A DNA stretch of 64,000 bases from Candidatus Latescibacterota bacterium (GTDB lineage: Bacteria; Latescibacterota; UBA2968; UBA8231), in the NCBI GenBank assembly GCA_965204725.1, contig OZ242005.1, positions 5,056,001-5,120,000 of the forward strand, given 5' to 3'. The notes beneath the pieces were generated by a model. The model had not been told where the DNA came from. It did no database searches and saw only the letters and a program-made list of their open reading frames with translations. Below, piece by piece: positions 10,569-27,086 of the stretch (the stretch's first letter is position 1; each line of letters opens with the position of its first letter). Both the position numbers and the translations under genes were made by a program.

Positions 10569-12032
10569 ATGAGCGAAAGCACCCAAACCCTAGAGCAATT
10601 TGCCAACCGCGACTACGAGTGGGGATTCGTCACCGATGTGGAGGCCGACTCGGCCCCGCCCGGCCTCAACGAAGAGACCATCCGCTTCATCTCCGCCAAA
10701 AAGGACGAGCCTGAGTTCATGCTCCAGTGGCGGCTCAAAGCCTACCGCCGCTGGCTCGCGATGGAGGACCCAACGCGCCGCAAAGAAAGCCAGCGCTGGG
10801 CCATGGTCCACTATCCCGACATCAACTACCAAGACATCGTGTACTACTCGGCCCCCAAGAAGAAACAGCTCGACAGCCTCGACGAGGTCGATCCCGAGAT
10901 TTTGGCCACCTACCAGAAGTTGGGCATCCCCCTCGAAGAGCAGAAGATGCTCGCCGGCGTGGCCGTGGACGCCGTCTTCGACAGCGTCTCGGTAGCCACC
11001 ACGTTCAAGGACAAGTTGGCCGAGTTGGGCATCGTCTTTTGCTCCATGTCCGAAGCCATACAAAATCACCCCGCGCTCGTACAAAAATACCTCGGCTCGG
11101 TCGTGCCCTATTCCGACAATTTCTTCGCCACCCTCAACTCCGCGGTCTTTACCGATGGCTCCTTCGTGTACGTGCCGCCGGGCGTGCGCTGCCCCATGGA
11201 GCTATCGACGTACTTCCGCATCAACGCGGCGAACACCGGCCAATTCGAGCGCACCTTGGTCATCGCCGACGAGGGGGCTTATGTGTCGTACTTAGAGGGC
11301 TGCACCGCGCCCATGCGCGACGAAAACCAGCTCCACGCGGCCGTCGTCGAGCTCGTGGCCCTCGGCGACGCCCAGATCAAGTACTCCACCGTGCAGAACT
11401 GGTATCCGGGCGACGAAAACGGCAAAGGCGGGATTTACAACTTCGTCACCAAGCGCGGCGCGTGTCGCGGCGACCGCGCCAAAATTTCGTGGACCCAAGT
11501 CGAGACCGGCTCGGCCATTACTTGGAAGTACCCTAGCTGCATCCTGCAGGGCGATCATTCGGTCGGCGAATTTTACTCGGTGGCCGTCACGTCCAAGCGG
11601 CAGCAGGCCGACACCGGCACCAAGATGCACCACATCGGCAAAAACACCCGCAGCACCATCGTCTCCAAGGGCATTTCTGCCCAGCGCGGCCAAAACACCT
11701 ATCGCGGCAAGGTGCAGGTGCTCAAAAACGCGGCCGGTGCCCGCAACTTCACCCAATGCGATTCCATGCTCATCGGCGACCAATGCGGCGCACACACCTT
11801 CCCCTACATTGAGGTCCGCAATCCCACCGCCCACGTTGAGCACGAGGCTTCCACTTCCAAGATCGGCGAGGACCAGATTTTCTACTGCAACCAGCGCGGG
11901 ATCTCCACCGAAGACGCCATCTCCATGATCGTCAACGGCTTCTGCAAGGAAGTCCTCGCCGAGTTGCCGATGGAGTTCGCCGTCGAGGCGCAGAAGCTGC
12001 TGGGGATTAGCTTGGAGGGGAGTGTTGGGTAG
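10569..12032 (+). CDS. sufB: Fe-S cluster assembly protein SufB
   Basis: [54 protein letters not shown]. Confidence 0.97.
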
Positions 12033-12048
12033 GTTGAAGGGTAAGCCC

Positions 12049-15000
12049 GTGAATACGACGATAGACCGCCCCAACAGAGACGCGCTCAACAAGGTGCTGG
12101 ACATCTACCGCGACGCCATGCGCCCGTTTATTGTCCGCTCTCTAAAGAGAGTGCGGGGCCAGCAGGTTGAAGGGGTGATCCGCAACGCGCTCAATGACCG
12201 CCAAGCCGAGCAGTTCAGCCAGAACCTGAGTAAGAACGGGCGCGATGCAGCGGCCTCAATAGATATTGGCGACTTTCCCCACCTCATTAGCAGAAAATGG
12301 AACGAGGTCTTCCAACAGCCATTCGGCGACGAGCGAGGGGTCCAAAACGCGCTATGGCTAATAAAGGAAGCGCGAGACAAAGCGGCTCATCCCGGCCCAC
12401 AGGACCTAGATACAGAGTTCGTCCGAACCCACCTGTTTCTCATCGCCGATGTGATTGGCAAAATCAATGCACCAAAGCAGAAGCAGGCCGTAGAAACGAT
12501 CCGGGACCAACTCGCCAGCCCTTCGAGTCAACGTGAGACCCCCGCCAAGAGCCAACCTGCAACGCCACCATCCCGTCTGACCAGCGATCTCGCTCCTTGG
12601 CGGCAGGTCATTCGTCCCAATCCCGATGTGGCCCTAGGGACCTTCCAAGAGGCCGAGTTTGCGGCCGATCTCCAACAGGTCCACGACGGACGCGCCGACG
12701 CAACTCAGTACGGCAATCCAGTCAGCTTCTTCAACCATACGTACATCACCCCGGGCATCCGCACCCTGCTAGTCAACACCTTGCAGCGGCTCAGTGGCAA
12801 CGGGGGCGATCCGGTTATCCAGACCAAAACGGGCTTTGGTGGCGGCAAGACGCACAGCCTCATCGCGCTCTATCATCTAGTGAGTAGCACCGACGCCTTG
12901 ACCAATCCGAGCGGCAATGGCCAAGCGGCGCAGACCCACAACGAGATACGCAGCATTATAGAAGAAGCCGGGCTGGACCCAACTATTGGCGTTCAGGCTC
13001 GCGTCGCCGTGCTCGACGGTACGCATCTTGCGACCACCGATGCCGCCAAAACCCTCAACGGCGATCCGCTCAACACTCTGTGGGGTATGATGGCGTACCA
13101 ACTTGGCGGCCAAGCGGCCTACGACCTAGTCGGCGAAGCGGCGCGACAGGGAACCGCGCCCGGCGGTGCTCAGCTAGACGAGCTGTTCGCACACATCGGA
13201 CCGTGCGTCATCCTCATCGACGAGTTGGTCGCATACGTGCGCAATGCCGGGAACGCACAGGACAGCATCTTAACCTTCGTCCAAGCCCTCACCCAAGCAG
13301 TCCGTAAGAACAGCAACACGGCCCTCGTCGTAACCTTGCCCGAAAGCAGCGTTGAGGCGGGAAGCGAGGCCGGTATAAAGGCCCTCAGCCAACTCGAACA
13401 CTTCCTCGGGCGCATTGAGACTGTGTGGGAACCGCTTGAGACGAACGAAGCGTTTGAAGTGGTGCGCCGCAGACTGTTTGGAAATGACATAGACGAGGCC
13501 GAAAGGGATCGCACCTGCCAAGCCTTCGCCGCTATGTACAGTAGGGCGCGAAACGAGTATCCCCGTGCGGTTGGTGAGCATCACTACCTTGAGCGGCTGC
13601 GAGCCTGCTATCCCATTCACCCGGAGATCTTTGACCGCCTCTATTTGGATTGGTCTTCTATTGCTCAGTTCCAGCGCACGCGCGGCGTCCTGCGGATGAT
13701 GGCCAACTGCGTCAGCCGCCTGTTTTTAGACAACGATTCCTCCCCGCTCATCATGCCGGCGAATCTGACCTTGAGCGATACGGCCTTGGCCAACGAGTTT
13801 GTCAGGCTGCTTGGTAGCCAATGGGGGCCAGTCCTGTCGGAGATCGATAGCAACAACTCCAGAACCGACAACATGGACCGGGCATCCCAGCGATTCAGCG
13901 AGGTCGGCGGTGCTGCTCGGCGCATAGCCCGCACAATTTTCCTCGGCAGTTCCGGCAGCGGTGCTGTCAAAGGCATTGATGCCCGTCAGATTCGCCTCGG
14001 CGTAGTACAGCCCAAACACGGAGTCTCGGTGTACAACGATGCCCTCGGCCAAATTAGCGGCGATCTCTACTACCTTTATAGTAGTGAGGGACGGTACTAC
14101 TTCCACGCCGAGGAAAACCTCAACAAGGTCGCCACGGACCGCGCTACGGCCCTGAGCGGCAGAGACATTAACGACCACATCGTCGCGCAGTTGCAAGAGG
14201 CGGTTGGACGCCGCTCAGACATCATCGTCTGCCCAGCCGATTCGCGGGCCGTGCCCGACGCCGATGCGGTGCGCCTCGTGCTTTTGCTTCCTGATAGGTC
14301 GCTGCCGAGCCGCGCCAGCGAGAAAGACGACGCCGAGCTAGCAGTGCAGCAGATGCTACAGTACTGTGGTGACTCCCTCCGGGTCCGCAGGAACACCCTG
14401 CTCTTTCTGGCGGCGAGAAAAGACGAGATTCGCGATCTGAACAACCGGGTTAAGCGGTTCCTCGCTTGGCATTCCATCGTCAACGGCGAGCGCCGCATTG
14501 AAAATCTTTCGGGCGACCGTCTCAAACAGGCTCAGAGCAGTCTCCGGGCGGCGGAAGCAGAGGTGCGAACTGCTCTGGTCGGAGCGTACCGCTGGGCCAT
14601 CGCCCCGGTCCAAGACGATCCGCAGAAGGCCGAATATCGCTTGGCGGTCTCTCAAGTTGGTGCGACCGACGGCGAGATTATTGACAATGCTTTCGACAAG
14701 TTCATCGGGGACGAGGCCCTCGTAGAGCACATAAGCCCTTCGGCGTTGGCTACCCTGTTGAAGCAGTACGTATGGAATAATCCCAACCACCAAGACCACA
14801 TTAGCATAGATGGCTTGTGGGATATGATGACCCGCTATGTGTACATGCACCGCCTGCGAAGTAGAGCGGTCCTGCAACGTTGTATCGAGCAAGGTGTGCC
14901 CGACGGAGCTTTTGGCTACGCTGAGTCCTACGATGGGGAGCAGTACGAGGGGATGCGCTTCCGCGAGCCGGTTGGGAGCGCGGCGTCGAGTGCGGGCGAG

Positions 15001-15390
15001 CGCAGCGCAACGTTGCTGGTCAATCCTGAGATGGCGGTGCTGGTAGTGGAAGAAGGTGGGGAGACTCCAGAAGACTTGGAACCCTCAACCGACGACACAG
15101 ACCCCGGCACCGCTAAACCCACTACAATCGTCGATTCCGAGACGCCGCTACCTGCATCGCATGGCCCCACGCGCATCGTCGCCAGCAAGACGACCGCAAA
15201 CGACGTATCGCTGGACGACATTAGCCAGTTGCGCGAGGAGATTATCCGCATCCTACGAGATGGCGGCAGCACGGTAACTGTTACTATTACCATCACGGCG
15301 GACAAGGCCGATGGCTTCTCCGAGAGCACGGCGCGGGCTGTGCGCGAGAACAGTGTACAGCTTGGACTGAATTTCAAGGAACTTGACTAG
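12049..15390 (+). CDS. DUF499 AAA+ ATPase with N-terminal Swt1-like HEPN domain
   Basis: N-terminal RDKAAH (Rx4H); PWRQVIRPNPDV...EFAADL; Walker A TGFGGGKTHSLIALYH; ILIDELVAY; YPIHPE; FQRTRGVLR. GTG start. Confidence 0.9.
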   Translation: MNTTIDRPNRDALNKVLDIYRDAMRPFIVRSLKRVRGQQVEGVIRNALNDRQAEQFSQNLSKNGRDAAASIDIGDFPHLISRKWNEVFQQPFGDERGVQNALWLIKEARDKAAHPGPQDLDTEFVRTHLFLIADVIGKINAPKQKQAVETIRDQLASPSSQRETPAKSQPATPPSRLTSDLAPWRQVIRPNPDVALGTFQEAEFAADLQQVHDGRADATQYGNPVSFFNHTYITPGIRTLLVNTLQRLSGNGGDPVIQTKTGFGGGKTHSLIALYHLVSSTDALTNPSGNGQAAQTHNEIRSIIEEAGLDPTIGVQARVAVLDGTHLATTDAAKTLNGDPLNTLWGMMAYQLGGQAAYDLVGEAARQGTAPGGAQLDELFAHIGPCVILIDELVAYVRNAGNAQDSILTFVQALTQAVRKNSNTALVVTLPESSVEAGSEAGIKALSQLEHFLGRIETVWEPLETNEAFEVVRRRLFGNDIDEAERDRTCQAFAAMYSRARNEYPRAVGEHHYLERLRACYPIHPEIFDRLYLDWSSIAQFQRTRGVLRMMANCVSRLFLDNDSSPLIMPANLTLSDTALANEFVRLLGSQWGPVLSEIDSNNSRTDNMDRASQRFSEVGGAARRIARTIFLGSSGSGAVKGIDARQIRLGVVQPKHGVSVYNDALGQISGDLYYLYSSEGRYYFHAEENLNKVATDRATALSGRDINDHIVAQLQEAVGRRSDIIVCPADSRAVPDADAVRLVLLLPDRSLPSRASEKDDAELAVQQMLQYCGDSLRVRRNTLLFLAARKDEIRDLNNRVKRFLAWHSIVNGERRIENLSGDRLKQAQSSLRAAEAEVRTALVGAYRWAIAPVQDDPQKAEYRLAVSQVGATDGEIIDNAFDKFIGDEALVEHISPSALATLLKQYVWNNPNHQDHISIDGLWDMMTRYVYMHRLRSRAVLQRCIEQGVPDGAFGYAESYDGEQYEGMRFREPVGSAASSAGERSATLLVNPEMAVLVVEEGGETPEDLEPSTDDTDPGTAKPTTIVDSETPLPASHGPTRIVASKTTANDVSLDDISQLREEIIRILRDGGSTVTVTITITADKADGFSESTARAVRENSVQLGLNFKELD

Positions 15391-15399
15391 GAACACGCC

Positions 15400-15909
15400 A
15401 TGACAACCGCACAACAAGCCCAAGCTCCTCTTTGGCAGGACCGGATCGTCAAAGACCCGCTGATACTCGGTGGCAAGCCCATTGTGAAAGGGACCCGGCT
15501 CTCGGTTGAATTCATAACCAGCGAACTCGAACGGGGTCGCACCGAAGCCGACCTCCTCTGCGACTACTCGCCGCGCCTGACCGCGGAAGATGTCGAGGCA
15601 TGTCGCCAGTACAAGGCTACAGGTGCCAAGCTATCCTACACCACTTGGGCGATGCAGGACGCCTTGATGGATGGCGACATTACCGCAGAGGAATTTGAGG
15701 CCCTGAAAAAGGAACAAATCACTTGGGAGGAACTGCACACTCTGAAGGGCGGCGGTGTCACTTGGGCACAACTCGACGCGCTAAGAGAAGGCAAGATCAC
15801 TTGGGCGCAACTGGACGACCTGAGAGCGGGTAAGATCGGTTGGGAGGAACTCGACGCCGCAATGGGTGGCCGATACAAGATGATCTGGCAAAACGGCGAA
15901 AGACCATGA
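15400..15909 (+). CDS. DUF433 antitoxin-like protein with C-terminal 13-aa repeats
   Basis: DPLILGGKPIVKGTRLSVEFI...LTAEDVEAC, followed by ITWxxLxxLxxGx repeats. Confidence 0.85.
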   Translation: MTTAQQAQAPLWQDRIVKDPLILGGKPIVKGTRLSVEFITSELERGRTEADLLCDYSPRLTAEDVEACRQYKATGAKLSYTTWAMQDALMDGDITAEEFEALKKEQITWEELHTLKGGGVTWAQLDALREGKITWAQLDDLRAGKIGWEELDAAMGGRYKMIWQNGERP

Positions 15910-16250
15910 GAATACTGGCCGACGAAAATATATCGGGGCACATCGTCACCCGTCTGCGCGGAGTCGGCCACGATCTGCGATGGGCTAAAGAAAGCGACCC
16001 AAGCGAAGCCGACGCTAACCTGCTGATGCTGGCGAATCGCCAAAGACGCACTCTAATAACTTACGATACGGACTTCGGGGAACTGGTCCATCGGCACGAC
16101 ATGACAGCCCCGTATGGTGTCATCCAGTTCCGCATACATAAGAAAGTGCCGGGCGAGGTAGAACGGGAGTTCGTCTTCAACACCGTCAATATGTGGGATC
16201 GCTGGCCGCCTGGAGTGTGGAACATCCAGATACGACATCGTCCAACCTGA
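15906..16250 (+). CDS. DUF5615 PIN-like toxin
   Basis: MRILADENI, GHD, D..LL..A, LITYDTDFGEL; ATGA overlap with the DUF433 gene. Confidence 0.85.
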   Translation: MRILADENISGHIVTRLRGVGHDLRWAKESDPSEADANLLMLANRQRRTLITYDTDFGELVHRHDMTAPYGVIQFRIHKKVPGEVEREFVFNTVNMWDRWPPGVWNIQIRHRPT

Positions 16251-16285
16251 CCTTTTAATTTCCTGTCAACGAGAGCCGCCGGTAC

Positions 16286-19108
16286 ATGACCGCTCAAACT
16301 CCATATCGTCGCAAGCTCATTGAGGTGGACTTGCCCCTTGACGACATCAACTACGAGTCTGTCCGCGAGAAGTCCATTCGGCACGGTCATCCTTCGACTC
16401 TGCATTTGTGGTGGTCACGAAAGCCATTGGCGGTGTGCCGCGCCGTCATTTTCGCCAGTATGGTGGACGACCCGGTTGACTGTTCCGACGAGTTTCCTAC
16501 TGAGGCGGCCCAACGTGCGGAACGCGAGCGGCTGCACGACATCATCCGGGAGCTTGTGAAGTGGGAGAACACCGACGAAAGTAAGACCGCAAGTAGGGAA
16601 CTCTTGGCGGAAGCGCGATGCGAAATTGCTCGCTCGATGGCGCGTACACGCGGCGAAACTGCGCCCACTGATCCGGCAGAAGTGCTGCGCTATCTCAACG
16701 ATAAGGTCCGTCCGGTTTACGATCCCTTTGCGGGTGGCGGCTCCATACCGCTCGAAGCGCAACGACTTGGGCTGCGAGCGGTCGCCTCTGATCTCAACCC
16801 GGTGGCCGTTCTTATTAACAAGGCATTGATCGAGTTGCCGCCGAAATTCAGCGGCCAATCCCCGATCAACCCGGATGCCGACCGGATGGGTATGACTGTT
16901 GGCAAGGGCAAGAAGCGGCGCGTTCCGTGGCGCGGTGCGGCGGGGCTGGCCGACGACATTCGTTACTATGGTCGCTGGATGCGCGAGGAAGCGTTCAAGC
17001 GGATAGGGCATCTGTATCCGCAGGTGAAACTGCCCGATGGAACGAATGCCACTGTAATTGCGTGGCTGTGGGTGCGCACCGTGCCTTGTCCAAATCCGGC
17101 GTGTCGCATTGCCATGCCGCTGATGGCCACGTTTCAATTGTCGAAGAAGAAAGGCAACGAACACTGGACTAAGCCCGTCATTGACCGCGAGAAAAATAGC
17201 ATCTCCTTTGTGGTACAGAACCACAACGCCGACATTCCCGAAAGCGGCACGGTGAACCGCAACGGCGCGACCTGTCTCGGCTGCGGCGGTGTGGTGAAAC
17301 TACCCTACGTGCGCGAGCAAGGGCGAGCAGGCAACATGGGAGAGGTTATGAAGGCGATTGTCGTCGAGGGAAACCGCAGGCGGCTGTTTCTTTCTCCCAC
17401 CGAAGAACACATCGAGGTTGCACAGGAAGCTATACCTGCTTGGCGACCCAACGGCAGCTTGCCTGAGCGAGCATTGAGCATCAGGGCGCAGATCTACGGG
17501 CTCACGGAGTGGCATAAACTTTTTACGGAACGTCAGCTAACCGCGCTGACCACGTTTAGCGACCTGTTGGGAGAGGTTCGCTCCTTAATTCTCGAACACG
17601 GAGCGTCTGAGGAATATGCTGACGCGGTTTGCACCTACCTTGCGCTTGCCGTTGGCAGAATCTCCGAAAGCGGTTGCAGTTTTGCCAGATGGCATACTTC
17701 CCGTGACCTCGTAACCGGGGTTTTTGGTCGCCAAGGAATTGGAATGGTTTGGGATTTCGCAGAAGGGAATCGTTTCTGTAGTTCATCAGGTAACTGGACG
17801 GGCCAAATCGAGTGGATAGCTAAAGCCGTCGATCACCTGCCCGCCGATGTAAACGGCGGAGAAGCGCATCAGGCCGACGCATCTACAACTATTCACGCTC
17901 AGGACGGTCCCGTCATCGTCACCGACCCGCCCTACTACGATAACATACACTATGCCGATTCATCCGACTTTTTCTATGTCTGGCTGCGCCCCCTGCTCCG
18001 CAACACATACCCCGATCTGTTTGCTGGCATCCTGACCCCCAAAAACGAGGAAATGGTTGCCAATCGATTCCGTTTTGAAAATTACAGCCAACATTTTGAG
18101 CAACAGCTAAGCAAGACGTTGCGGTTGATACGGGAACGCTGCTCGGCTGAGTTCCCATCGTCCATTTTCTACGCCTACAAACAACAGGAGGAGGAACGCG
18201 CAGGTAGAGCCTCGACCGGCTGGGAAACTATGCTATCCGCCGTTGTCTCGGCTGGCTTTCAGATAATCGGCACTTGGCCTATGCGAACTGAGATGGGGAA
18301 CCGATCCAATGCAATGAATACGAACGCCCTCGCCTCGTCCGTCGTCCTCGTCTGCCGTCCGCGCCCCAAAGATGCGCCCATTGCCACGCGCCGCCAATTC
18401 CTTGACGCGCTGGCGAAAGAGCTGCCCGAGGCTCTCGATCAACTCACCCGCGAAAGCCACATCGCCCCGACCGATCTAGCGCAAGCCGCTATCAGCCCCG
18501 GCATGCAAATCTACTCGCGCTACGCACGGGTCGAGACCATCAGCGGCGAGCCGGTGCCAGTGCGCGAGGCCCTAGCGGCCATTAACCGAGCCATCGCCGA
18601 TTACGACGAGCGACAGGAAGGCGACTTGGATGCAGAGAGCCGCTTCTGCCTCGACTGGCTCAAACAGCACGACTACGGAGAAGGCCAGTACGGCGAGGCC
18701 GAGACGCTAGCCCGCGCCAAAAACGTAGCCATCAGCAAACTGCAAAATCTGGACGGCCTACTCACGGCCGAAGGGGGCCGGGTAAAGCTGCTGCCACTTG
18801 ATGAATTTGGCGACAGTCGTCCGTTGAGCCTCGGCAATGGGACCGCGTGGGAAGGATGCTTTCGCATGGCGTACCACCTAAACCGCGAGGAAGGCCGAGG
18901 GATCGAGGGTGCGGGTATGGTTGCGCGGGAAATGGATGGCAACGTCGAATCCGTTGAGCGCTTGGCGCGCATTCTCTACAACCACTACGACCGCAAAGGC
19001 GACGCACAAAACGCGGTCGTCTTCAACAATCTCGTCACCGAGTGGCAAAATATCCATTCTGCCCTCTCAAGGATGAGAGAAGATGCACAGAGTCAGCTAT
19101 TCCAATAA
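16286..19108 (+). CDS. DUF1156-containing amino (adenine) DNA methyltransferase
   Basis: KLIEVDLPL...HLWWSRKPL; motif I YDPFAGGGSIPLEA; CPNPAC/CLGC zinc ribbon; motif IV TDPPYYDNI. Confidence 0.92.
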   Translation: MTAQTPYRRKLIEVDLPLDDINYESVREKSIRHGHPSTLHLWWSRKPLAVCRAVIFASMVDDPVDCSDEFPTEAAQRAERERLHDIIRELVKWENTDESKTASRELLAEARCEIARSMARTRGETAPTDPAEVLRYLNDKVRPVYDPFAGGGSIPLEAQRLGLRAVASDLNPVAVLINKALIELPPKFSGQSPINPDADRMGMTVGKGKKRRVPWRGAAGLADDIRYYGRWMREEAFKRIGHLYPQVKLPDGTNATVIAWLWVRTVPCPNPACRIAMPLMATFQLSKKKGNEHWTKPVIDREKNSISFVVQNHNADIPESGTVNRNGATCLGCGGVVKLPYVREQGRAGNMGEVMKAIVVEGNRRRLFLSPTEEHIEVAQEAIPAWRPNGSLPERALSIRAQIYGLTEWHKLFTERQLTALTTFSDLLGEVRSLILEHGASEEYADAVCTYLALAVGRISESGCSFARWHTSRDLVTGVFGRQGIGMVWDFAEGNRFCSSSGNWTGQIEWIAKAVDHLPADVNGGEAHQADASTTIHAQDGPVIVTDPPYYDNIHYADSSDFFYVWLRPLLRNTYPDLFAGILTPKNEEMVANRFRFENYSQHFEQQLSKTLRLIRERCSAEFPSSIFYAYKQQEEERAGRASTGWETMLSAVVSAGFQIIGTWPMRTEMGNRSNAMNTNALASSVVLVCRPRPKDAPIATRRQFLDALAKELPEALDQLTRESHIAPTDLAQAAISPGMQIYSRYARVETISGEPVPVREALAAINRAIADYDERQEGDLDAESRFCLDWLKQHDYGEGQYGEAETLARAKNVAISKLQNLDGLLTAEGGRVKLLPLDEFGDSRPLSLGNGTAWEGCFRMAYHLNREEGRGIEGAGMVAREMDGNVESVERLARILYNHYDRKGDAQNAVVFNNLVTEWQNIHSALSRMREDAQSQLFQ

Positions 19109-19451
19109 TTTGTTCGCCAAGAAGTATCAGCTAGAGAACAACCTGCGCCCATTCAACCGAGAGGAGGTGCAAACGCTACCAAGGGACTGTTGCGGCCTAT
19201 ATGCCCTGTGGCTGCCCGAAGAAAGTGCCCACGAACGGCTCTACATCGGCATGTCCGCAACTTGCGTCCGCCGCCGCCTGCTGGAGCACCTAGCAAACGA
19301 GACCAATCCCGAACTTCGACGCCAACTCCGCATGTTCCCCTACCTAGTAGAGTTCTCGGTAACATTCACCAAAAGCGAAGAGGAAACTCGCGAGTTAGAG
19401 GCCGCCATCATCCGCGCTTGGCAACCCGAAACCAACCGCAACTTACGGTAG
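19083..19451 (+). CDS. Small GIY-YIG nuclease
   Basis: GLYALW...LYIGMS...RRRLLEH...ELEAAII...PETN. Start codon uncertain. Confidence 0.75.
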   Translation: MHRVSYSNNLFAKKYQLENNLRPFNREEVQTLPRDCCGLYALWLPEESAHERLYIGMSATCVRRRLLEHLANETNPELRRQLRMFPYLVEFSVTFTKSEEETRELEAAIIRAWQPETNRNLR

Positions 19452-19470
19452 CAGAGATTGCATCTGTAGA

Positions 19471-19959
19471 ATGGCTATGAATAGAAAGCGACGATTGCTT
19501 ATTCTATCGTGCTCACAGCGCAAACACGCTTCGCACGAGCCTTTACCGGCGATTGACAGATACAACGGCCCGTTATTCTTCGTATTACGTCGTTTTCTTC
19601 GCGAACGTCCCCATCAGGCAAGTCTGCTTGATGTGTACATCTTATCCGCAGTATATGGGCTTATTCCGGGCGATTTCTCAACCGCACTGTATGACCGAAA
19701 GATGAATACAGCGCGTATCGCTGAATTACAGCCTCAAATCACCACAGCATTTTCAGGTATTCGACGCGACAACTACATTTCAGTCTGTTTTGTACTGGGT
19801 AAAGCCTATCTGAAGGCATTGGAGGGATTACAAGCCCATAAGAAAGCAATTGTTGCTTACGGTCCGATAGGCAAAAAGCAGACGCAACTTAAAAAGTGGC
19901 TGTGGGGCGAAGATTCCTACACTCTTGACGAAAGGAACCTCGATGAAACTGGAAGTTAA
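19471..19959 (+). CDS. DUF6884 / YaaA-like protein
   Basis: ILSCSQRK...PAIDRYNGPLF...YILSAVYGLI...YDRKM...LGKAY...IGKK. Confidence 0.75.
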   Translation: MAMNRKRRLLILSCSQRKHASHEPLPAIDRYNGPLFFVLRRFLRERPHQASLLDVYILSAVYGLIPGDFSTALYDRKMNTARIAELQPQITTAFSGIRRDNYISVCFVLGKAYLKALEGLQAHKKAIVAYGPIGKKQTQLKKWLWGEDSYTLDERNLDETGS

Positions 19960-20377
19960 AGTTATCAATCGCTCGACAGATGAGCCAATCGCAACCTACT
20001 CTGTACCAGATTTCTCAATGCTTGACTTTCAGGAATGGAAAGAGAAAAGTGAGGTTACGATTAAATTGGACTGTCTTTCAGATAAAGTGGCTGATCTGGA
20101 CTCAAATGATCCTGAAATACAGAAGCCGGTATCTAATCCAAGGAAGGTTGATTTTTATTTGCCTGATTCAATAGAAAATCAGATGGTTTTTCAATTCGCA
20201 AAATTGAAAACAGACACGGAGGAATCTACCGATCAGTCTGTGGATAACAACGAAGTATCCGAACGGGTTTCTACACCGAATTTAAAATCAAGTACCATTT
20301 TATCCGCTATCGTAACAGAGATCTTACAGAACCACCATCCGCATTCTGATTACCAAGTGAAAATCTCTGATGGATAG
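19943..20377 (+). CDS. Hypothetical protein
   Basis: AAGGA RBS; overlaps both neighbours; no recognisable motif. Confidence 0.55.
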   Translation: MKLEVKVINRSTDEPIATYSVPDFSMLDFQEWKEKSEVTIKLDCLSDKVADLDSNDPEIQKPVSNPRKVDFYLPDSIENQMVFQFAKLKTDTEESTDQSVDNNEVSERVSTPNLKSSTILSAIVTEILQNHHPHSDYQVKISDG

Positions 20378-21476
20378 CCGATCACTCAAGTTAGATGTGT
20401 TCATTGCTGAATACCCACTTTGGGGTAGTGAATGGGAAGTTTCTTATACAGATGGTACACACCTGCCTGAAAAAGAATATGTGAAACTTGGCGATATCGC
20501 AATTGATGAAGATGAGGAAATTGCACGACGCTATCCGATTTTACCTTTTTCTTTTTCGCCTGTGTCGGATAAAAAAATCAAAAGTCGTTTCTCTGAGTTG
20601 TCCAAAGATAACGGAATGAAACAAGCGGATCGAGCATCAAAAATCATACGTGATCAACTCGCCGACAGCATGGTACGGACTGGACTTCTACGCCCGGAAT
20701 TTTGCCTAATGGAAGACCAAGGTGTCAAGATGGAGTTTCGGAAAGTAATGAAAAAACTCTCAGAACATGGTTACTTAATACTTGTCGCTGATACAAGCAC
20801 CTTGCGACGGGCAGTGATCTCTTTCTTGCACAAAACCCTATCCGACGTGTTGATTTGGACGGTTGTTCCCGTTTTCGTGATGACTGAGCTCCAACGGCAA
20901 GTAAATGAATTGAATAGGAAACGGAGAGAAAGTGACCAAGGTAGAAAGCCTCAGCTTGGAAGGTGTAACGTGCTTGAGATGCGTCCACAGGTCTCAGTCA
21001 TTAGTCGAGAATTGAATCACATCCGCCAGTGGCGTCCCTTGGAAATGCTAACAACGCTTCCTGAACACTTAGGTCAGTCCAAAGGGAACTCCAGAGGGAA
21101 CCCAACAATTGACCGGCTGATTATTGAAAGCGTGAAGAACCTCAAGCGAGATCGAGGATTACACCAAGGTGTCTATCTCATCACCGGGGATAAGGATATG
21201 GCTTCACTTGCGACTTTAGAAAACCAAGGAAGCCTCCACCTAGGCGTTCCATCACTACCCCCAGAAATTCCAGAACTTAGCTCCGTTCGATACGACTCTC
21301 ATAACAACAGGTTCGTCCTAACTCCTGTACATTACCTACTGTGGGATTTGGCTCAGGTCTTCAGTACGATTCGTTTTAAGAACAAGGAACTTGACCGCAC
21401 ATACGAACTTGTTTATTACTCACAAGCGCGTGGAGGATTCTTTTCTTACGACGTGATGGAAATACGGGAGTTCTGA
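20370..21476 (+). CDS. PIN-domain nuclease with N- and C-terminal extensions
   Basis: Acidic PIN residues in LVADTS, VMTELQ, IDRLII, LITGDKD. Confidence 0.75.
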   Translation: MDSRSLKLDVFIAEYPLWGSEWEVSYTDGTHLPEKEYVKLGDIAIDEDEEIARRYPILPFSFSPVSDKKIKSRFSELSKDNGMKQADRASKIIRDQLADSMVRTGLLRPEFCLMEDQGVKMEFRKVMKKLSEHGYLILVADTSTLRRAVISFLHKTLSDVLIWTVVPVFVMTELQRQVNELNRKRRESDQGRKPQLGRCNVLEMRPQVSVISRELNHIRQWRPLEMLTTLPEHLGQSKGNSRGNPTIDRLIIESVKNLKRDRGLHQGVYLITGDKDMASLATLENQGSLHLGVPSLPPEIPELSSVRYDSHNNRFVLTPVHYLLWDLAQVFSTIRFKNKELDRTYELVYYSQARGGFFSYDVMEIREF

Positions 21477-21479
21477 GGA

Positions 21480-22409
21480 TTGGATCCGATCACTATAAAT
21501 AAATTGCTGTCTGTTGCTGATAGCATTGAGACGCAGCGTACTGAAAGTCAACTCTCGCTGGATACATTTTACAAGATCGTCGAGAGTCAAGGACAAGTAA
21601 AACACCCCGTACGACGAGTGCGAGACATATTGCGAGTCTTTGAAGCATCGAATTGGTTAGTTCAAAGCGAGCAAGATCAGGATATGTTGTGTTTAACCGA
21701 AGATTTCCATAATTTTATTTGCACTTGGAACGCTGGAGACTATTTATTGCCGATGAATCAAGGATTGAAAAATTATCCACCTTATGCACGTTTTCTTCAC
21801 TGTCTAGAGCGCGAGAAAAAGATTGAATTTCCCCAACGTCAGGATAAGGAAGCTCGAAGGAATTTGGGGCATAGATTAAAACAGAAATATAATATAACCT
21901 TCGTTGCCTTTGATACATTCTGGACATGGGCAGTATCCGTAGGACACGCATACCGTTCGCCTTTTGAAGAAATTCTCTATTGGGGCGGAGAGTGGGATGA
22001 AAAGCGGCCATCCTTAGAGTGCTTCAAAATAGCTTGCCGGGATAGTTATTGCCAGACAGACAAAACATCTTGTTATGCGAACTTGGGTAGTTTAGCACAT
22101 ATTGTTTGTAAGGAACTGAGTATCTCTTTTCAGGCTTTTGAGATGAAGATGAACGAGTTTGTAAAAACCTATCCAAGAGAAATTAGGCTCGCACCAGCGA
22201 CGATTCGACGAGAAGTTTCTGGACATCTACGAATCACCTCGATACGGCCAAGAAAAGAGATTCTTAAAGAACGGCTTTCCGCGAAACTGCAAGGTATGAA
22301 GTCGTCAAAACCACAGAAACCACAGTGGTTTGAACACCGCTATTTGGAGGATGGGATGCGAGTGAACGGCAAACTGGTCAAACTAATTCGATGGGAGGTA
22401 GCAAAATGA
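21480..22409 (+). CDS. Hypothetical protein, possibly tandem winged-helix
   Basis: TTG start 3 nt after the PIN stop. VRDILRVFEASNWL...LCLTED and W.VSVG segments resemble wHTH recognition helices and wings (weak). Confidence 0.6.
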   Translation: MDPITINKLLSVADSIETQRTESQLSLDTFYKIVESQGQVKHPVRRVRDILRVFEASNWLVQSEQDQDMLCLTEDFHNFICTWNAGDYLLPMNQGLKNYPPYARFLHCLEREKKIEFPQRQDKEARRNLGHRLKQKYNITFVAFDTFWTWAVSVGHAYRSPFEEILYWGGEWDEKRPSLECFKIACRDSYCQTDKTSCYANLGSLAHIVCKELSISFQAFEMKMNEFVKTYPREIRLAPATIRREVSGHLRITSIRPRKEILKERLSAKLQGMKSSKPQKPQWFEHRYLEDGMRVNGKLVKLIRWEVAK

Positions 22410-23581
22410 CACTAATGAAAGACCTTTCTTTGTTTAGAGTTGAGCCCCAGGAACTCAATCCATACGAAAAGTATTTTCTCCTTGGGAATCCATTTCCGGG
22501 ACATGGGGACACTAGCTCTGATGTCTGTACAGACCAAGACGAGTTAAAAAAAGAATTTGTCTATAGCTTGCAGAACTTTTCCTCAGACGCCAAGCGATTG
22601 CGTATTAATGGAGAAAGTGGTGCAGGCAAGACAAATATCTTGCGGTACTTTGAAAGACTGACTGACGAAGCAAGAGAAAATAAACTTATTAAAAATATAC
22701 ATCCAATCTATGTTTTTGCTCCTGGAGAGAGTTACTACGACATTCATGGACAAATTATTGATAAACTGTCTGAGTTATTCTTAGGTGATCTGTTTGAGCA
22801 GCTAAAATCAAATCCGAAAAAAATTGATACTCTTTCGGAAGATATTCGACCTGCATTCGAGCTCCTAGCAGTTATTAAAACACTAGTCGAGTCTAATAGT
22901 CTATTCACTATTTACAGTGAGCGGCATAAAGATGCCTTAATTCGCTGGTTGAAAGTGCAAAAGCTCTCGGCAGCAGACAAAAAATTATTAACTAGAATTG
23001 GAGAAAAACCCATCTCCGATATTACTAGTCTGTCGCTCGCCATGCGGTTCTTGAGTGGATTGCTCGCCGTGCTGAAAGAACTCGGTCTGTGCGATGGAAT
23101 CGTTTTGCTATTTGACGAATTTGAGGAGATTTTTGAAGGATTGTCCCGTCCACGCCAATCCCGATACGCACAAGACCTTCGGCATCTTTTCGATACGTTA
23201 AAGGAATCCGTTTTCTTTGTCATTGCAACCGTTCCAGAACCGAAAGACCTAGCACAATATCCTGCAATTGAGCGACGCTTAGGTAATGCGGTCGTGCTCC
23301 AGCCCATAGATAGTCTCGAACTTGCCGTTGAATACGTATCGGACTACTTGACCAGCGGACGAGACAAGTATGAACGGTATCTCAAAGAACATGAAAAGCA
23401 ATCCCAACAAGATCGTCCCAAACATTTAGAACCTCTGAAACCGCAAATTGTTGAAGAGGAGTACGGTCTATTAAAAAAAGAAGTTGAGGAAGCGAAACTC
23501 GATATTTTACCGGGATATTTTTTACCTCGCATGAAAGAACGAATAAAACGAGAAGTCGAGTTACCTAATGAACAAAAATGA
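22406..23581 (+). CDS. P-loop ATPase (Orc1/Cdc6- or BrxD-like)
   Basis: N-terminal NPY..LGNPFP; Walker A GESGAGKT; Walker B LLFDEFEE; AIERRL arginine finger. Confidence 0.8.
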   Translation: MTLMKDLSLFRVEPQELNPYEKYFLLGNPFPGHGDTSSDVCTDQDELKKEFVYSLQNFSSDAKRLRINGESGAGKTNILRYFERLTDEARENKLIKNIHPIYVFAPGESYYDIHGQIIDKLSELFLGDLFEQLKSNPKKIDTLSEDIRPAFELLAVIKTLVESNSLFTIYSERHKDALIRWLKVQKLSAADKKLLTRIGEKPISDITSLSLAMRFLSGLLAVLKELGLCDGIVLLFDEFEEIFEGLSRPRQSRYAQDLRHLFDTLKESVFFVIATVPEPKDLAQYPAIERRLGNAVVLQPIDSLELAVEYVSDYLTSGRDKYERYLKEHEKQSQQDRPKHLEPLKPQIVEEEYGLLKKEVEEAKLDILPGYFLPRMKERIKREVELPNEQK

Positions 23582-24761
23582 TACACAAAACGCTGTCTCT
23601 GTAGGATTTTTGGAGACACCCAACCTGTTTGCCAGCTATCGCATACACGACTATCCACGTGCGGGCCTACGTTGCCATCCATGGAAGATGACCGATACCC
23701 AAGCGATTCTGCTCAACGCCTTTGATCTGCTAGCGAATAGACGAACACATAAGTTCACTGAAGAAATCCGAAATATGAAAGGCAAGCTGCACGAATACGT
23801 CGAATTTGATGGTCCACTTATGCTCGATTCTGGTGCCTTTAATTTTCTACAACATGCTGAAATCAGTATTACACCTCTTGACGTCCTGTCGATTGGGATT
23901 GAGTTAGGGGCTGATATGTCGGTTGTGCTTGACCATCCCTTCATGCCTAAATCTGATCCGAAAGAGATAGATGTACGTTGGTCAAATACTGTGGAGAACA
24001 CCCGTAAAATGTTTGAGGCTCTAAAAGAGTCTGACGCCTCGCATCGCCCAAAACTCATACCTGTTCTTCACGGCCATAATGAAAAAACACTCTCCCGTGC
24101 TTTAGATGCTATTGTCAAAATATGGGGTCAAGAGCCTGCCATCGTCGGCATTGGAAGTTTGGCACCTCTTGCTCTCAATGGAAGCAAGCGCACAGTAGTT
24201 GATGTTATTCTCACGGTACGGAAACTGCTCCCCAAAACTCATATTCACTGTTTCTCTTTGGGATCTGCCCTGCTGATGCTATTCGCCTTTTACTGCGGTG
24301 CAGATACCGTCGATTCACAGACTTGGATTATGAGTGCTGCCTTCAAACAAGTGCAGTTGCCCGGCGTTCACTTGACCCGCTTTTCTCGCCGTGAAGCTGA
24401 AAAAGATCCCGCCAAATATGAACAAAGCCGTCGTGCCTTTGCTCAGCATTTGCTGCGATTGACTACTGAAGAGAAATTTGCTGTCAAAGACTGGGATGAT
24501 GGGACAGACTGGTCAATCTGTGATGAACGCGCTGCGCTTTCTTACTTAGACTATCTTGAAGACCGTGATGGGATAAACCACGTTCATCGCCGGGCCTGCC
24601 ACAATCTATACGCATTCAACTTTGAGGCGAGGCGAGTGCGCCATCAAAAGAAGGCTGACACACTCGAAACCTTTGTTCATAGCCGAATGAACAGCACTGT
24701 TTACCGAAAGGTATTTGAGTATGCAACTGAAAAAACCACAACCAGTAGAACTCAGCTATGA
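23568..24761 (+). CDS. TGT-family guanine transglycosylase (archaeal-TGT/DpdA-like, not the housekeeping Tgt)
   Basis: LETP, LMLDSGAF, VLDHP, IPVLHG, GIGSLAP, IHCFSLG, GADTVDS, HNL motifs. Confidence 0.85.
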   Translation: MNKNDTQNAVSVGFLETPNLFASYRIHDYPRAGLRCHPWKMTDTQAILLNAFDLLANRRTHKFTEEIRNMKGKLHEYVEFDGPLMLDSGAFNFLQHAEISITPLDVLSIGIELGADMSVVLDHPFMPKSDPKEIDVRWSNTVENTRKMFEALKESDASHRPKLIPVLHGHNEKTLSRALDAIVKIWGQEPAIVGIGSLAPLALNGSKRTVVDVILTVRKLLPKTHIHCFSLGSALLMLFAFYCGADTVDSQTWIMSAAFKQVQLPGVHLTRFSRREAEKDPAKYEQSRRAFAQHLLRLTTEEKFAVKDWDDGTDWSICDERAALSYLDYLEDRDGINHVHRRACHNLYAFNFEARRVRHQKKADTLETFVHSRMNSTVYRKVFEYATEKTTTSRTQL

Positions 24762-26278
24762 CTACGACATCTAAAACAAAGCCCCTTGAGCTAACGGTCG
24801 CCAACTTCGGCCCCGTCGCCAAGGCGAATATCGAACTGCGCCCAATGTCCGTATTCGTGGGGCCGAGCAACACCGGCAAGTCCTATATGGCCGTGCTGAT
24901 TTACGCACTGCATAAGTTTTTCAGTGCCTACCCTTATCGGCGATATGTGAGACTCGATTTGTCGAGAAAAAACGTTGCAACCACTTTAGCTTGGGCAAGG
25001 GAAACGCATTCAAACTTGCAAAGAGCAAAACGCGAGCAGTCTTCTCTAATTGAACTACCGGAGTCTATTGAGGCATTGGTACGCTCTTTTCTTCCTCGCA
25101 TCGTCAAAAATTCAGGGGACGTTTTGGAGAGCGAACTTGTCAGGTGCTTTGGGGTGGACAAATCCAAAGACTTAATTCGTCATTCAAGTGATAGCCACAC
25201 TTTATTTTCCTTTTGGAGCAATTTCTCGGAAGCTGGACGCAACGATCTATTTCGCTACAATGTTGCATTGACCAAGCGTGGAAGCAAAATAACTGCTTCG
25301 ACTCCGAACACCCTACCTCGGCAACTTAGAGAAGATAGCACATTACCTCTCTATGACTGGATAGACGGAAGCATAGACGAAGAGCGGGCTGCCGAAGGAT
25401 TGTTGGTCGAGCTTGCCAATGCCGTTGTTTCCAATATGGTTGCTTCCTTGAGTCATCCTGCGTATTACTTTCCCGCTGACCGCGCTGGTGTCATGCACGC
25501 GCATCAAGTAGCCGTGCGGGGTTTAATCGCAAGTGCCTCGCGCACCGGACTGCGACGCGATTCGCCCATGCCCGTACTTTCCGGGGTTTTGGGCGATTTT
25601 CTGGAACAGCTTGTTGAATTGGCGGAACCATGGCGGAGATACAAGAGCGACAATGATCTCGCTCTACGCTTAGAACAGGCCCTTCTTAAGGGAACTGTCC
25701 GCGTCGAACAGTCCCAGATTGACTATCCCTCGTTTGTCTATAGGCCAGACGGTTGGAAGCAGGATCTGCCCTTGATGAGTGCGTCGTCCATGGTGTCGGA
25801 ATTGGCACCTGTAGTGCTGTACCTGCGTCACGTCGTTCAGCCGGGCGATCTGCTCATCATTGAAGAGCCCGAGTCGCATCTGCATCCGGCCATGCAGGTG
25901 GAGTTTACCCGCCAGCTCGCGGCCGCAGTACAAGCAGGCGTCCGCATCCTCATTACCACTCACAGCGAATGGGTGTTGGAAGAATTGGCCAATCTGGTTC
26001 GCTTGTCAGAGCTGCCCAAGGAGCGGCGCACGGGAATCGATGACGAGGATGTAGTGCTCACTCCCGACCAAGTAGGCGCGTGGTTTTTCGAGCCGAACTC
26101 GGAAGGTAGCGGTTCTGTGGTGCGGGAAATTGCACTCGATACCGAGTCAGCAACCTTCCCGGCTGGTTTTGGACTGGTCACTGAATCACTCTATAACCGA
26201 TGGTCGGAAATTTCCACCCGGATTGAGGAGGGAAGGTGCCAGAGTCGATTAAACTGGTGCGGTGCGGCTCGCCGCTGA
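24758..26278 (+). CDS. AAA_15/AAA_21 ABC-type ATPase
   Basis: NFGPV, GPSNTGKS, FPADRAG, ASSMVSELAP, IIEEPESHLHP, ITTHS. Confidence 0.88.
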   Translation: MTTTSKTKPLELTVANFGPVAKANIELRPMSVFVGPSNTGKSYMAVLIYALHKFFSAYPYRRYVRLDLSRKNVATTLAWARETHSNLQRAKREQSSLIELPESIEALVRSFLPRIVKNSGDVLESELVRCFGVDKSKDLIRHSSDSHTLFSFWSNFSEAGRNDLFRYNVALTKRGSKITASTPNTLPRQLREDSTLPLYDWIDGSIDEERAAEGLLVELANAVVSNMVASLSHPAYYFPADRAGVMHAHQVAVRGLIASASRTGLRRDSPMPVLSGVLGDFLEQLVELAEPWRRYKSDNDLALRLEQALLKGTVRVEQSQIDYPSFVYRPDGWKQDLPLMSASSMVSELAPVVLYLRHVVQPGDLLIIEEPESHLHPAMQVEFTRQLAAAVQAGVRILITTHSEWVLEELANLVRLSELPKERRTGIDDEDVVLTPDQVGAWFFEPNSEGSGSVVREIALDTESATFPAGFGLVTESLYNRWSEISTRIEEGRCQSRLNWCGAARR

Positions 26279-26298
26279 CAAAAGCATTGAAGGGCTAA
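26236..26298 (+). pseudogene. Collapsed remnant of ABC-ATPase partner gene
   Basis: GAGGAGG RBS plus GTG opens a 20-codon ORF VPESIKLVRCGSPLTKALKG*. Confidence 0.35.
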
Positions 26299-26336
26299 AC
26301 GAACCCATACCATACAACCCTAACCGAAAGCACGTC

Positions 26337-27086
26337 ATGCTCCACATTGAAAACCTCCACGTCGCCGTTGAAGACACTCCCATCCTGCGCGGCGTCAATC
26401 TGAAAGTAGAACCCGGCGAAATCCACGCCATCATGGGGCCTAACGGCTCGGGCAAAAGCACCCTCGCGCAAGTCTTAGCCGGTAGGGAGGGCTACGACAT
26501 CACCGCAGGGTCGGTTGCGTACTGCGGCCAAGACCTGCTCGAACTCGCGCCGGAAGAACGGGCGCACGCCGGAATGTTCCTCGCCTTCCAGTATCCGGTG
26601 GAAATCCCCGGCGTCAACTCCACGTACTTCCTCCGCCAAAGCTACAACGAAATCCGCAAGCAACGCGGCGAGGAAGAACTCGACGCCATCGACTTTCTCG
26701 GGCTAATCCGCGAGAGGCTCGCCTTGGTGGAAATGGACGAGAACTTCCTCAAGCGGTCGGTCAACGAAGGCTTTTCCGGCGGCGAGAAAAAGCGCCACGA
26801 AATTTTGCAGATGGCCGTGTTGGAACCCAAGCTGTCGATCCTCGACGAGACCGACTCCGGCCTCGACATCGACGCGCTGCGGATCGTCGCCCAAGGCGTC
26901 AATCAACTCCACGCCCCAGACAAAGCCGTCGTCGTGGTCACCCACTATCAGCGCCTGCTCAACTACATAGCCCCCGACTTCGTCCACGTGCTCTACGAGG
27001 GACGCATCGTCCAGTCGGGTGGCAAAGAACTGGCACTGACGCTGGAGGAAAAGGGCTACGACTGGGTCAAGGAGTCCGTCCAATGA
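26337..27086 (+). CDS. sufC: Fe-S cluster assembly ATPase SufC
   Basis: GPNGSGKSTL, FQYPVEIPGV, VNEGFSGGEKKR, LDETDSGLDIDAL, THYQRLL. Confidence 0.97.
   Translation: MLHIENLHVAVEDTPILRGVNLKVEPGEIHAIMGPNGSGKSTLAQVLAGREGYDITAGSVAYCGQDLLELAPEERAHAGMFLAFQYPVEIPGVNSTYFLRQSYNEIRKQRGEEELDAIDFLGLIRERLALVEMDENFLKRSVNEGFSGGEKKRHEILQMAVLEPKLSILDETDSGLDIDALRIVAQGVNQLHAPDKAVVVVTHYQRLLNYIAPDFVHVLYEGRIVQSGGKELALTLEEKGYDWVKESVQ

Follow-up and report, generated by a model that had tools for sequence, protein, structure and literature searches.

The six-gene cassette and its distribution

The DNA analysed here is a stretch of 64,000 nucleotides, hereafter the window, from the genome of a Candidatus Latescibacterota bacterium (assembly GCA_965204725.1, contig OZ242005.1, positions 5,056,001 to 5,120,000). 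At window positions 19471-24761 it contains a block of six intact open reading frames (ORFs), all on the + strand and either overlapping by 8-35 nt or separated by gaps of 3 nt, which we examined as a candidate defence cassette. Gene 1 (19471-19959) encodes a DUF6884/YaaA-like, DpdC-like protein of 162 amino acids (aa), and gene 2 (19925-20377) a small acidic protein, 150 aa long when read from its TTG start, that is a predicted subunit of the protein encoded next to it. This neighbour, gene 3 (20370-21476), encodes a 368-aa PIN-domain nuclease that has additional domains at its N and C termini. Gene 4 (21480-22409) encodes a protein of 309 aa built from three winged-helix units and belonging to no known family, and gene 5 (22391-23581) an AAA+ ATPase of 396 aa of the BrxC/BrxD, TniB or AAA_16 type. 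The last gene, gene 6 (23568-24761), encodes a TGT-family transglycosylase of 397 aa that consists of the catalytic domain only. The G+C content of the block is 0.438, compared with 0.589 in the rest of the window and 0.580 in the DUF499/DUF1156 genes upstream.

Profile searches mapped 69 loci with related genes, 24 of them from a genome collection and 44 from metagenomes, in addition to the window itself. Based on the genes that accompany DUF6884 and TGT, 38 loci were assigned to type I, which has the PIN, winged-helix and ATPase set of the window, nine to type II, with a DruE-like helicase/PLD protein and an uncharacterized protein, and 15 to type III, with a NurA-like protein and HerA only; seven were unclassifiable, being too short or otherwise unsuited. 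The DUF6884 and TGT genes form the invariant core across these locus types. All six genes were present in the same order in 31 of the 38 type I loci. Among the other seven, five (L007, L036, L041, L048 and L075) end at a contig edge upstream, L005 lacks genes 1 and 2, and the TGT gene of L050 is fragmented. Judged by their labels, type I loci come from Latescibacterota, Poribacteria, Chloroflexota and Acidobacteriota. Within the phylum of the window, each of the profiles for TGT, gene 4 and PIN picked out an identical set of 6 genomes among 168, with no match in the remaining 162; within its genus, the TGT was found in 4 of 31 species, the window's own genome counted. Since the gene order recurs in related loci and the profiles co-occur in the same six genomes, the association of the six genes is more than chance.

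The G+C content of the cassette was below that of its flanks in all 24 loci from the genome collection, and the flanks themselves vary by locus and include restriction-modification enzymes, DndB, Cas6, HNH, HerA, Macro, ParE and transposases. The cassette is a horizontally moving unit found in variable defence islands. This agrees with a sequence-only reading of the window, made before any database search, which had described six tightly spaced, co-oriented genes more AT-rich than their surroundings and taken them for one acquired unit; the survey of TGT neighbourhoods that it proposed recovered the same gene order across four phyla. Relatives were not encoded on any of 48 candidate stretches of viral contigs, and in a phage collection five archaeal-virus records were the only matches, all of them weak (E value 8e-8 or worse).

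The transglycosylase and its DUF6884 partner

Gene 6 matched the Pfam TGT family (PF01702) with 83.5 bits and carries the motifs LDSGAF (residues 86-91) and TVDS (247-250) that the sequence-only reading had picked out as catalytic. Residues D87, D122, G194/G196, F229 and D249 were invariant in 23 sequences. Its closest solved relative is the archaeosine TGT of P. horikoshii (ArcTGT, 1iq8; E value 1.7e-17), in which D95, D130, F229, D249 and H307 align with D87, D122, F229, D249 and H345 of the cassette protein. We take D95, D130, F229 and D249 of 1iq8 to be the catalytic aspartates and the deazaguanine pocket; on this alignment the cassette protein has a TGT fold in which both catalytic aspartates and the pocket are intact. 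Unlike the archaeosine enzyme, which is 582 aa long, it has no PUA or other C-terminal tRNA-binding domains, and it lacks the CxCxxC motif. This motif was absent from all eight of the closest full-length representatives (50% clustering) and present in 49 of the next 52 full-length TGT representatives checked. A further feature of the clade is an insert of its own at residues 259-335.

The family models place gene 6 at a distance from the characterized groups, with 81.7 bits against the archaeal TIGR00432 (cut-off 350), 31.4 bits against the bacterial TIGR00430 (cut-off 306.75) and an E value of 1.3e-4 against the DpdA model of PADLOC. In a quick IQ-TREE phylogeny, 23 cassette TGTs and six clade representatives formed one group with a support of 99 in the Shimodaira-Hasegawa-like approximate likelihood ratio test (SH-aLRT), apart from the genome's own Tgt, from CxCxxC-bearing relatives and from two DpdA-annotated proteins; this tree contains long branches, and its DpdA references are two plasmid proteins named by the Prokaryotic Genome Annotation Pipeline (PGAP), with no canonical Salmonella-type DpdA, DpdB or DpdC among them. 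As far as these comparisons go, the cassette TGT appears to represent a new clade distant from DpdA. The public names attached to 433 TGT clusters (E value of 1e-20 or lower) were either 'hypothetical' or labels of tRNA enzymes. Elsewhere in the window's own genome, at ~4.42 Mb of C1 (L029:634-2274), we found a 546-aa GNAT-TGT fusion protein. Because this fusion is of the kind reported for BREX-related capture (BRC) systems, a further defence system based on a TGT may be present in this genome.

The best family scores of gene 6 (TIGR00432 and 1iq8) are those of tRNA enzymes, its relatives are publicly annotated as 'queuine/archaeosine tRNA-ribosyltransferase', and PIN domains often cut RNA. 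These scores and labels would suit a tRNA role without action on DNA, be it that of an additional tRNA-modifying enzyme or of an effector directed at tRNA. However, the protein falls under every tRNA-TGT cut-off, the genome encodes a housekeeping Tgt separately (556 bits, compared with 83 bits for the cassette TGT), and related TGTs elsewhere are partnered by modules of the DNA helicase-nuclease and translocase kinds. Because of this separate Tgt and the missing C-terminal domains (397 vs 582 aa), we give a tRNA enzyme hardly any credence, and the grouping with housekeeping enzymes that the sequence-only reading had allowed for was not seen in the tree.

Gene 1 matched DUF6884 in Pfam (PF21818) with 35.8 bits (cut-off 30). 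It contains the motifs CxxxK (C14, K18) and LSAxxG (S59, A60, G63), both of which are named in the Pfam paper on DUF6884, where base flipping is predicted and a DNA-binding-type fold is described, and these five residues were kept in 46-49 of 49 family members. The DpdC domain is equated with DUF6884 in a genome-mining preprint (PMC11888242), and in a paper of 2026 DpdC is placed in YaaA, a related family, as the enzyme that hydrolyses 2'-deoxy-preQ0 (dPreQ0) to dADG (2'-deoxy-7-amido-7-deazaguanosine) (PMC12839542). Relatives of gene 1 gave weak matches to the PADLOC DpdC model, the best of them at 1.1e-4 (L023). Furthermore, in two ORFs that PGAP names 'DpdA', located on plasmids of Nostoc and Paenibacillus (L079/L080), the N-terminal half matched the gene-1 profile (E values 2.5e-11 and 8e-10) and the C-terminal part the TGT profile, and P0125, a member of the cassette TGT clade, is a natural TGT-DUF6884 fusion. 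Because DUF6884 is the DpdC family, relatives match DpdC weakly and the two domains occur fused, genes 1 and 6 appear to correspond to a DpdC-like and DpdA-like pair. The statement of the sequence-only reading that no DpdC is present accordingly seems mistaken. None of 266 gene-1 clusters carried a public name.

Genes for the supply of the base preQ0 are linked to this core. In 17 of the 69 loci the core adjoins a YhhQ/Vut_1 gene, a member of the family of queuosine-precursor transporters. QueC was present in 18 of the 22 host genomes behind the genome loci; the four QueC-less hosts all have YhhQ, in three cases (L010, L015 and L023) directly upstream of gene 1, and no QueC-positive genome (0 of 18) had a YhhQ linked to the cassette. 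In the window's own genome there are two copies of QueC, and YhhQ was not found. The loss of queC together with a cassette-borne importer suggests that queuosine precursors are a pool on which the system depends or for which it competes. In L047 (6250-10176), genes for QueC, a radical-SAM QueE-like protein, QueD, DUF6884 and TGT stand in a co-oriented row, on a contig that stops 169 nt past the TGT gene.

These linked genes bear on a type IV-like explanation, according to which TGT and DUF6884 would recognise or excise the 7-deazaguanines of phage DNA and the PIN, winged-helix and ATPase proteins would destroy the damaged DNA, leaving the host unmodified. Glycosylases against 7-deazaguanine-modified phage DNA are reported as defences in a preprint (bioRxiv 10.1101/2025.10.29.685425), and both the intact pocket residues of the TGT and the base flipping predicted for DUF6884 would suit such a role. 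Excision, however, would need no genes for importing or synthesizing a free base, yet YhhQ adjoins the core in the 17 loci above and queC-queE-queD in one, and the homologous DpdA/DpdC pair is described as writing the mark (PMC10164549). We therefore consider this explanation unlikely. The glycosylase-like weapon that the sequence-only reading had offered as its alternative is likewise weakened, because the core is linked to importer or base-synthesis genes.

The nuclease genes and their exchange

Type I loci split into two subtypes, A and B. Gene 2 matched nothing in Pfam, NCBIfam or PHROG, and its conserved start is probably M7, at 19943. Net charge ranged from -4 to -19 across 17 homologues of the two subtypes, and the counterpart in the second subtype has a similar size, charge and C-terminal helix. 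A complex of the gene 2 and gene 3 proteins was predicted with an interaction prediction score from aligned errors (ipSAE) of 0.87, compared with 0.00 for the best control; 116 of the 157 solved complexes in the benchmark attained this mark, as did 2 of the 215 mismatched pairs. Three runs shared at least 95% of contacts, and the partner had a predicted local distance difference test score (pLDDT) of at least 81. In this prediction, which lends support to binding, the gene 2 protein contacts the domains of the gene 3 protein other than PIN. That gene 2 might have arisen by duplication of the N-terminal part of gene 3 was considered and rejected (BLASTP E value 18), a single-linkage cluster that joined the two being an artefact.

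Gene 3 scored 20.8 bits against PIN_4 in Pfam, slightly below the cut-off of 21.9. Its acidic residues D141, E173, D248 and D274 are invariant, and its AlphaFold2 (AF2) model (pLDDT 85.8) matched PIN structures with a Foldseek probability of 1.0, including 5f4h, 3ix7, SMG6 and Nmd4. The modelled structure thus indicates a PIN fold with conserved acidic residues. Gene 4 has no meaningful Pfam family; in its AF2 model (pLDDT 89.7) three winged-helix units can be seen, and the structural matches were to generic winged-helix proteins only (MukF at Z 10.0, MarR, kleisin winged-helix domains and the FokI recognition domain). A lead that gene 4 might be DpdG-like (Atlas, 0.81) was not upheld, as Foldseek and VIA-align returned generic winged-helix matches only; the DpdG model NF041064 gave no match to gene 4 at E values up to 10, with the model's positive control also failing to match. 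The sequence-only reading had named both a PIN nuclease and a winged-helix-like protein at these positions, and both assignments hold in the models. Gene 5 matched BrxC_BrxD in Pfam (4.8e-7), as well as TniB and AAA_16, and BrxD in NCBIfam at 8.1e-8, far under the cut-off of that model. The Walker A (G74-T81) and Walker B (D242, E243) residues and R295 and R296 are invariant.

Comparison of the two subtypes separates these genes from the DUF6884-TGT core. Identity between subtypes is 31% for PIN, 30% for the winged-helix protein and 33% for the ATPase (59-63%, 56-59% and 57-62% within subtypes, respectively), whereas it is 62% for TGT (63-64% within) and 52% for gene 1 (48-55% within), and subtypes A and B are intermixed in the TGT tree. 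The PIN, winged-helix and ATPase genes co-vary and, to judge from these identities, recombine independently of DUF6884 and TGT, a pattern that would fit a writer kept constant while the nuclease modules are exchanged. The sequence-only reading had cast the ATPase and the winged-helix protein as a loader for the TGT, which finds no support here; because the two co-vary with PIN and not with TGT or DUF6884, they would belong with the nuclease module.

Two other modules accompany the core. That of type II consists of an 1804-aa DruE-like helicase-DUF1998-PLD protein (PADLOC DruE, 8e-134) and an uncharacterized protein of 426-440 aa. Loci with this variant (L023:1233-11137, L045, L054 and L069-L073) often also carry YhhQ and DUF3800, and the variant may overlap with the 'BRIGADE'/Dpd-like systems of a 2025 preprint. 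The third module pairs a ~615-aa protein that has a weak NurA match (8.6e-4) with a ~610-aa HerA ATPase. This pair lies between DUF6884 and TGT in 15 loci and just downstream of a complete type I cassette in seven (examples are L055:5230-8949 and L015:6480-10150, with 20 more loci).

The differing evolutionary histories of the two gene sets, and the occurrence of DUF6884-TGT without PIN, winged-helix and ATPase genes in types II and III, would also be expected of two independent neighbouring systems, one a DUF6884-TGT modification pair and the other an abortive-infection or toxin-like PIN/winged-helix/ATPase set. However, genes 2-5 lie enclosed by gene 1 on one side and TGT on the other, with overlapping frames, the alternative modules are enclosed likewise (L023, L055-L066), and the PIN and winged-helix profiles are found in 0 of the 162 TGT-less genomes of the phylum. 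Two separate systems therefore seem very unlikely to us.

Alternatively, the TGT could conjugate a deazaguanine to protein, or make a soluble regulator of the nuclease, in the manner of Cap10 of type IV CBASS (cyclic-oligonucleotide-based anti-phage signalling system) or of TIM-B. TGT-family enzymes remodelled to act on protein are described in two preprints (bioRxiv 10.1101/2025.04.06.647259; 10.64898/2026.10.19.760177), and the cassette clade has lost CxCxxC and gained its own insert at residues 259-335. On the other hand, there is no QueC-like Cap9 partner and no match to a CBASS or Qat model, the constant partner of the TGT has a DNA-binding-type fold, and the TGT serves three unrelated effector modules without co-varying with any of them, which argues for a universal substrate. 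We judge conjugation to protein to be rather improbable.

A candidate Dpd-like system and its neighbourhood

On balance we lean towards reading the cassette as a compact, DpdB-less and Dpd-like 7-deazaguanine DNA modification-restriction system, in which genes 1 and 6 would form the writer module and genes 2-5 the reader and effector module. The base-exchange modification and defence role that the sequence-only reading had put forward remains the best fit. In S. Montevideo, DpdA is reported to insert preQ0 into DNA and DpdC to turn dPreQ0 into dADG in vitro, independently of DpdA and DpdB (PMC10164549). By extension, the cassette TGT would insert preQ0 or a near relative into host DNA, drawing the base from the host queC pathway or, in queC-less hosts, from the cassette-linked YhhQ-family importer. 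The DpdC-like DUF6884 protein would then process the inserted base within DNA; by analogy with DpdC this step might be the conversion of the nitrile to the amide, yielding dADG, possibly by way of the invariant Cys of CxxxK. The PIN nuclease with its acidic partner, the triple winged-helix protein as DNA binder and the AAA+ ATPase would detect and degrade DNA that lacks the mark, such as that of an infecting phage.

Several points weigh against this reading, the functional support for which is drawn entirely from sequence comparison and predicted structures. Most characterized PIN domains are RNases. To our knowledge, every queuosine-making bacterium has either QueC or YhhQ, so the presence of one or the other is weak evidence and only adjacency counts; the three genome-level loci with a linked YhhQ are all from Chloroflexota and are not independent. 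Gene 6 scored only 24.4 bits against the DpdA model NF041059 (cut-off 200) and had no match to the Pfam DpdA family (PF23859) at an E value of 0.01 or lower, and the loss of CxCxxC may mean that substrate binding has been remodelled. Gene 1 of the window did not match the PADLOC DpdC models even at E values up to 10, and with 162 aa it is about half the length of those models (~310 positions). In addition, the DpdA of S. Montevideo is described as needing DpdB for insertion (PMC10164549), and there is no DndB domain in the cassette, nor any match to PF14072 in the whole genome, which is 94% complete. The DpdB model NF041060 likewise gave no match in five other host genomes, though its positive control also went unmatched. 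DndB-like genes beside the cassette in L004 and L020 were considered as stand-ins for DpdB and set aside, as the DpdB model found none there; they are more likely members of an adjacent PAPS-reductase/HNH gene set.

More tentatively, DUF6884 and TGT might be a self-sufficient, DpdB-independent 7-deazaguanine DNA writer that provides a portable self-label for at least three unrelated nuclease modules, with the acidic-PIN, triple winged-helix and AAA+ proteins forming a restriction complex of a new class that senses where the mark is missing; we find this extension conceivable but would not rely on it. Its product would then possibly be a derivative other than dPreQ0 or dADG.

Compared with the Dpd system of Salmonella Montevideo (dpdA-K), the cassette shares a TGT-family enzyme and a DUF6884/YaaA-like protein, a preQ0 supply through nearby que or YhhQ genes, a place in defence islands and separate modification and restriction parts. 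It differs in having no DpdB, a TGT in a clade apart from DpdA-annotated proteins, a gene 1 half the size of DpdC, a restriction part composed of PIN, three winged-helix units, AAA+ and an acidic protein in place of the helicases and PLD of dpdD-K, and only six genes in 5.3 kb. None of the Dpd restriction models of PADLOC and NCBIfam matched the cassette proteins. The sequence-only reading had held that the content matches neither Dpd nor QatABCD. With respect to Qat this stands, as the 15 scanned proteins gave no match to a Qat or CBASS model, and DpdB and the Dpd restriction genes are indeed missing, but through DUF6884 there is a partial match to Dpd. It had also called for a search for an already named system, and no PADLOC or NCBIfam system model fitted the cassette. 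The single hit was that of gene 1 to PDC-M57A (5.5e-8), part of the PADLOC candidate PDC-M57, a name for which no paper was found in the literature; no other cassette gene matched a PDC model.

Among the published systems, BRC (NAR 2026, PMC12839542) is similar in that, according to the proposal made there, self DNA is marked by a TGT with neither DpdB nor DpdC, and an ORC/Cdc6-type ATPase takes part. It is described as built on HerA, PglZ, DUF6079, STAND and DUF4007, none of which the cassette has. BRIGADE, or Dpd-like YprA-helicase, systems (bioRxiv 10.1101/2025.09.15.676423) are presented as a 7-deazaguanine cluster combined with YprA helicases and PLD, which resembles the type II loci L023, L045 and L054; the type I cassette of the window, by contrast, has neither helicase nor PLD. 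The literature on TGT-bearing defence (BRC, BRIGADE and TIM-B) describes other systems and not this gene set, with the qualification that the preprint supplements, which lay outside the search, could list it. The parts that look new are the TGT clade and the PIN-based module, both apparently within Dpd-type 7-deazaguanine restriction-modification. If the Dpd-like reading holds, deazaguanine marking of DNA would extend beyond large Dpd islands in the form of a two-gene, DpdB-free writer that swaps nuclease partners, and the cassette would serve as a minimal model in which to study the targeting of a TGT to DNA. Such marking would also widen the known range of non-methyl epigenetic marks in uncultured Poribacteria, Latescibacterota, Chloroflexota and Acidobacteriota, and a compact PIN-based restriction module would join the catalogue of defence systems.

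In the window, the cassette lies in a 14-kb island (12022-26278) inserted into the suf operon, where it is flanked by sufB (10569-12032) and sufC (26262-27086); all genes have the same orientation. The island consists of HmaC, a gene for a DUF433 protein, HmaB, a gene for a GIY-YIG protein, the cassette of six genes and an AAA_15 ATPase gene. The Hma-type DUF499/DUF1156 pair (12022-19451) was recognised by PADLOC (HmaC 5e-246, HmaB 1.6e-300); its HmaC has an N-terminal Swt1-like HEPN domain, and the small DUF433 and GIY-YIG genes are interleaved with the pair. No HmaA helicase was in view beside it. HmaB and HmaC adjoin the cassette locus only in L003 and L025 (2 of the 24 genome loci), and the suf insertion site is common to these two. 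At the other end, the AAA_15/AAA_21 ATPase gene (24758-26278; PD-T4-4_A-like, 9.8e-37) overlaps the TGT stop by 4 nt and has no partner gene ahead of sufC. It lies outside the cassette unit, because the TGT is accompanied by AAA_15 only in its two closest relatives, L003 and L025.

In L025, which comes from a sister genome and occupies the same suf site, Hma has been kept and the cassette lost. Its interior (L025:5617-10198) is swapped for a 718-aa GHKL ATPase, an uncharacterized 340-aa protein and a C5 cytosine methylase, and what is left of gene 1 and TGT is a near-identical stub of each, ~70 nt and ~200 nt long, respectively. A recurrent set of neighbours was seen beside five loci (L017:27-5723, L020:8-5688, L022:406-5729, and L004:4827-5792 and 11206-12444). 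It comprises an uncharacterized protein of ~800-960 aa, a PAPS-reductase-like protein, a DndB-family protein and an HNH_2 endonuclease, and may be a separate Dnd-like system. In one Poribacteria chromosome both cassette subtypes are present, ~66 kb apart (L008 and L019), with gene 1 of the subtype A copy split by an insertion sequence (IS) element.

Decay was seen in several type I loci. The PIN gene is broken or reduced in 4 of the 22 genome-level type I loci, by transposase insertions in L006 and L011, into fragments in L009 and to a remnant in L016; among the same 22 loci the ATPase gene is affected in two, gene 1 in two, TGT in one and the winged-helix gene in none, counts too small for a statistical test. 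In two metagenomic loci (L037:2893-4080 and L038:2777-3964) the PIN gene is present as two ORFs in the same frame, split by a single stop codon.

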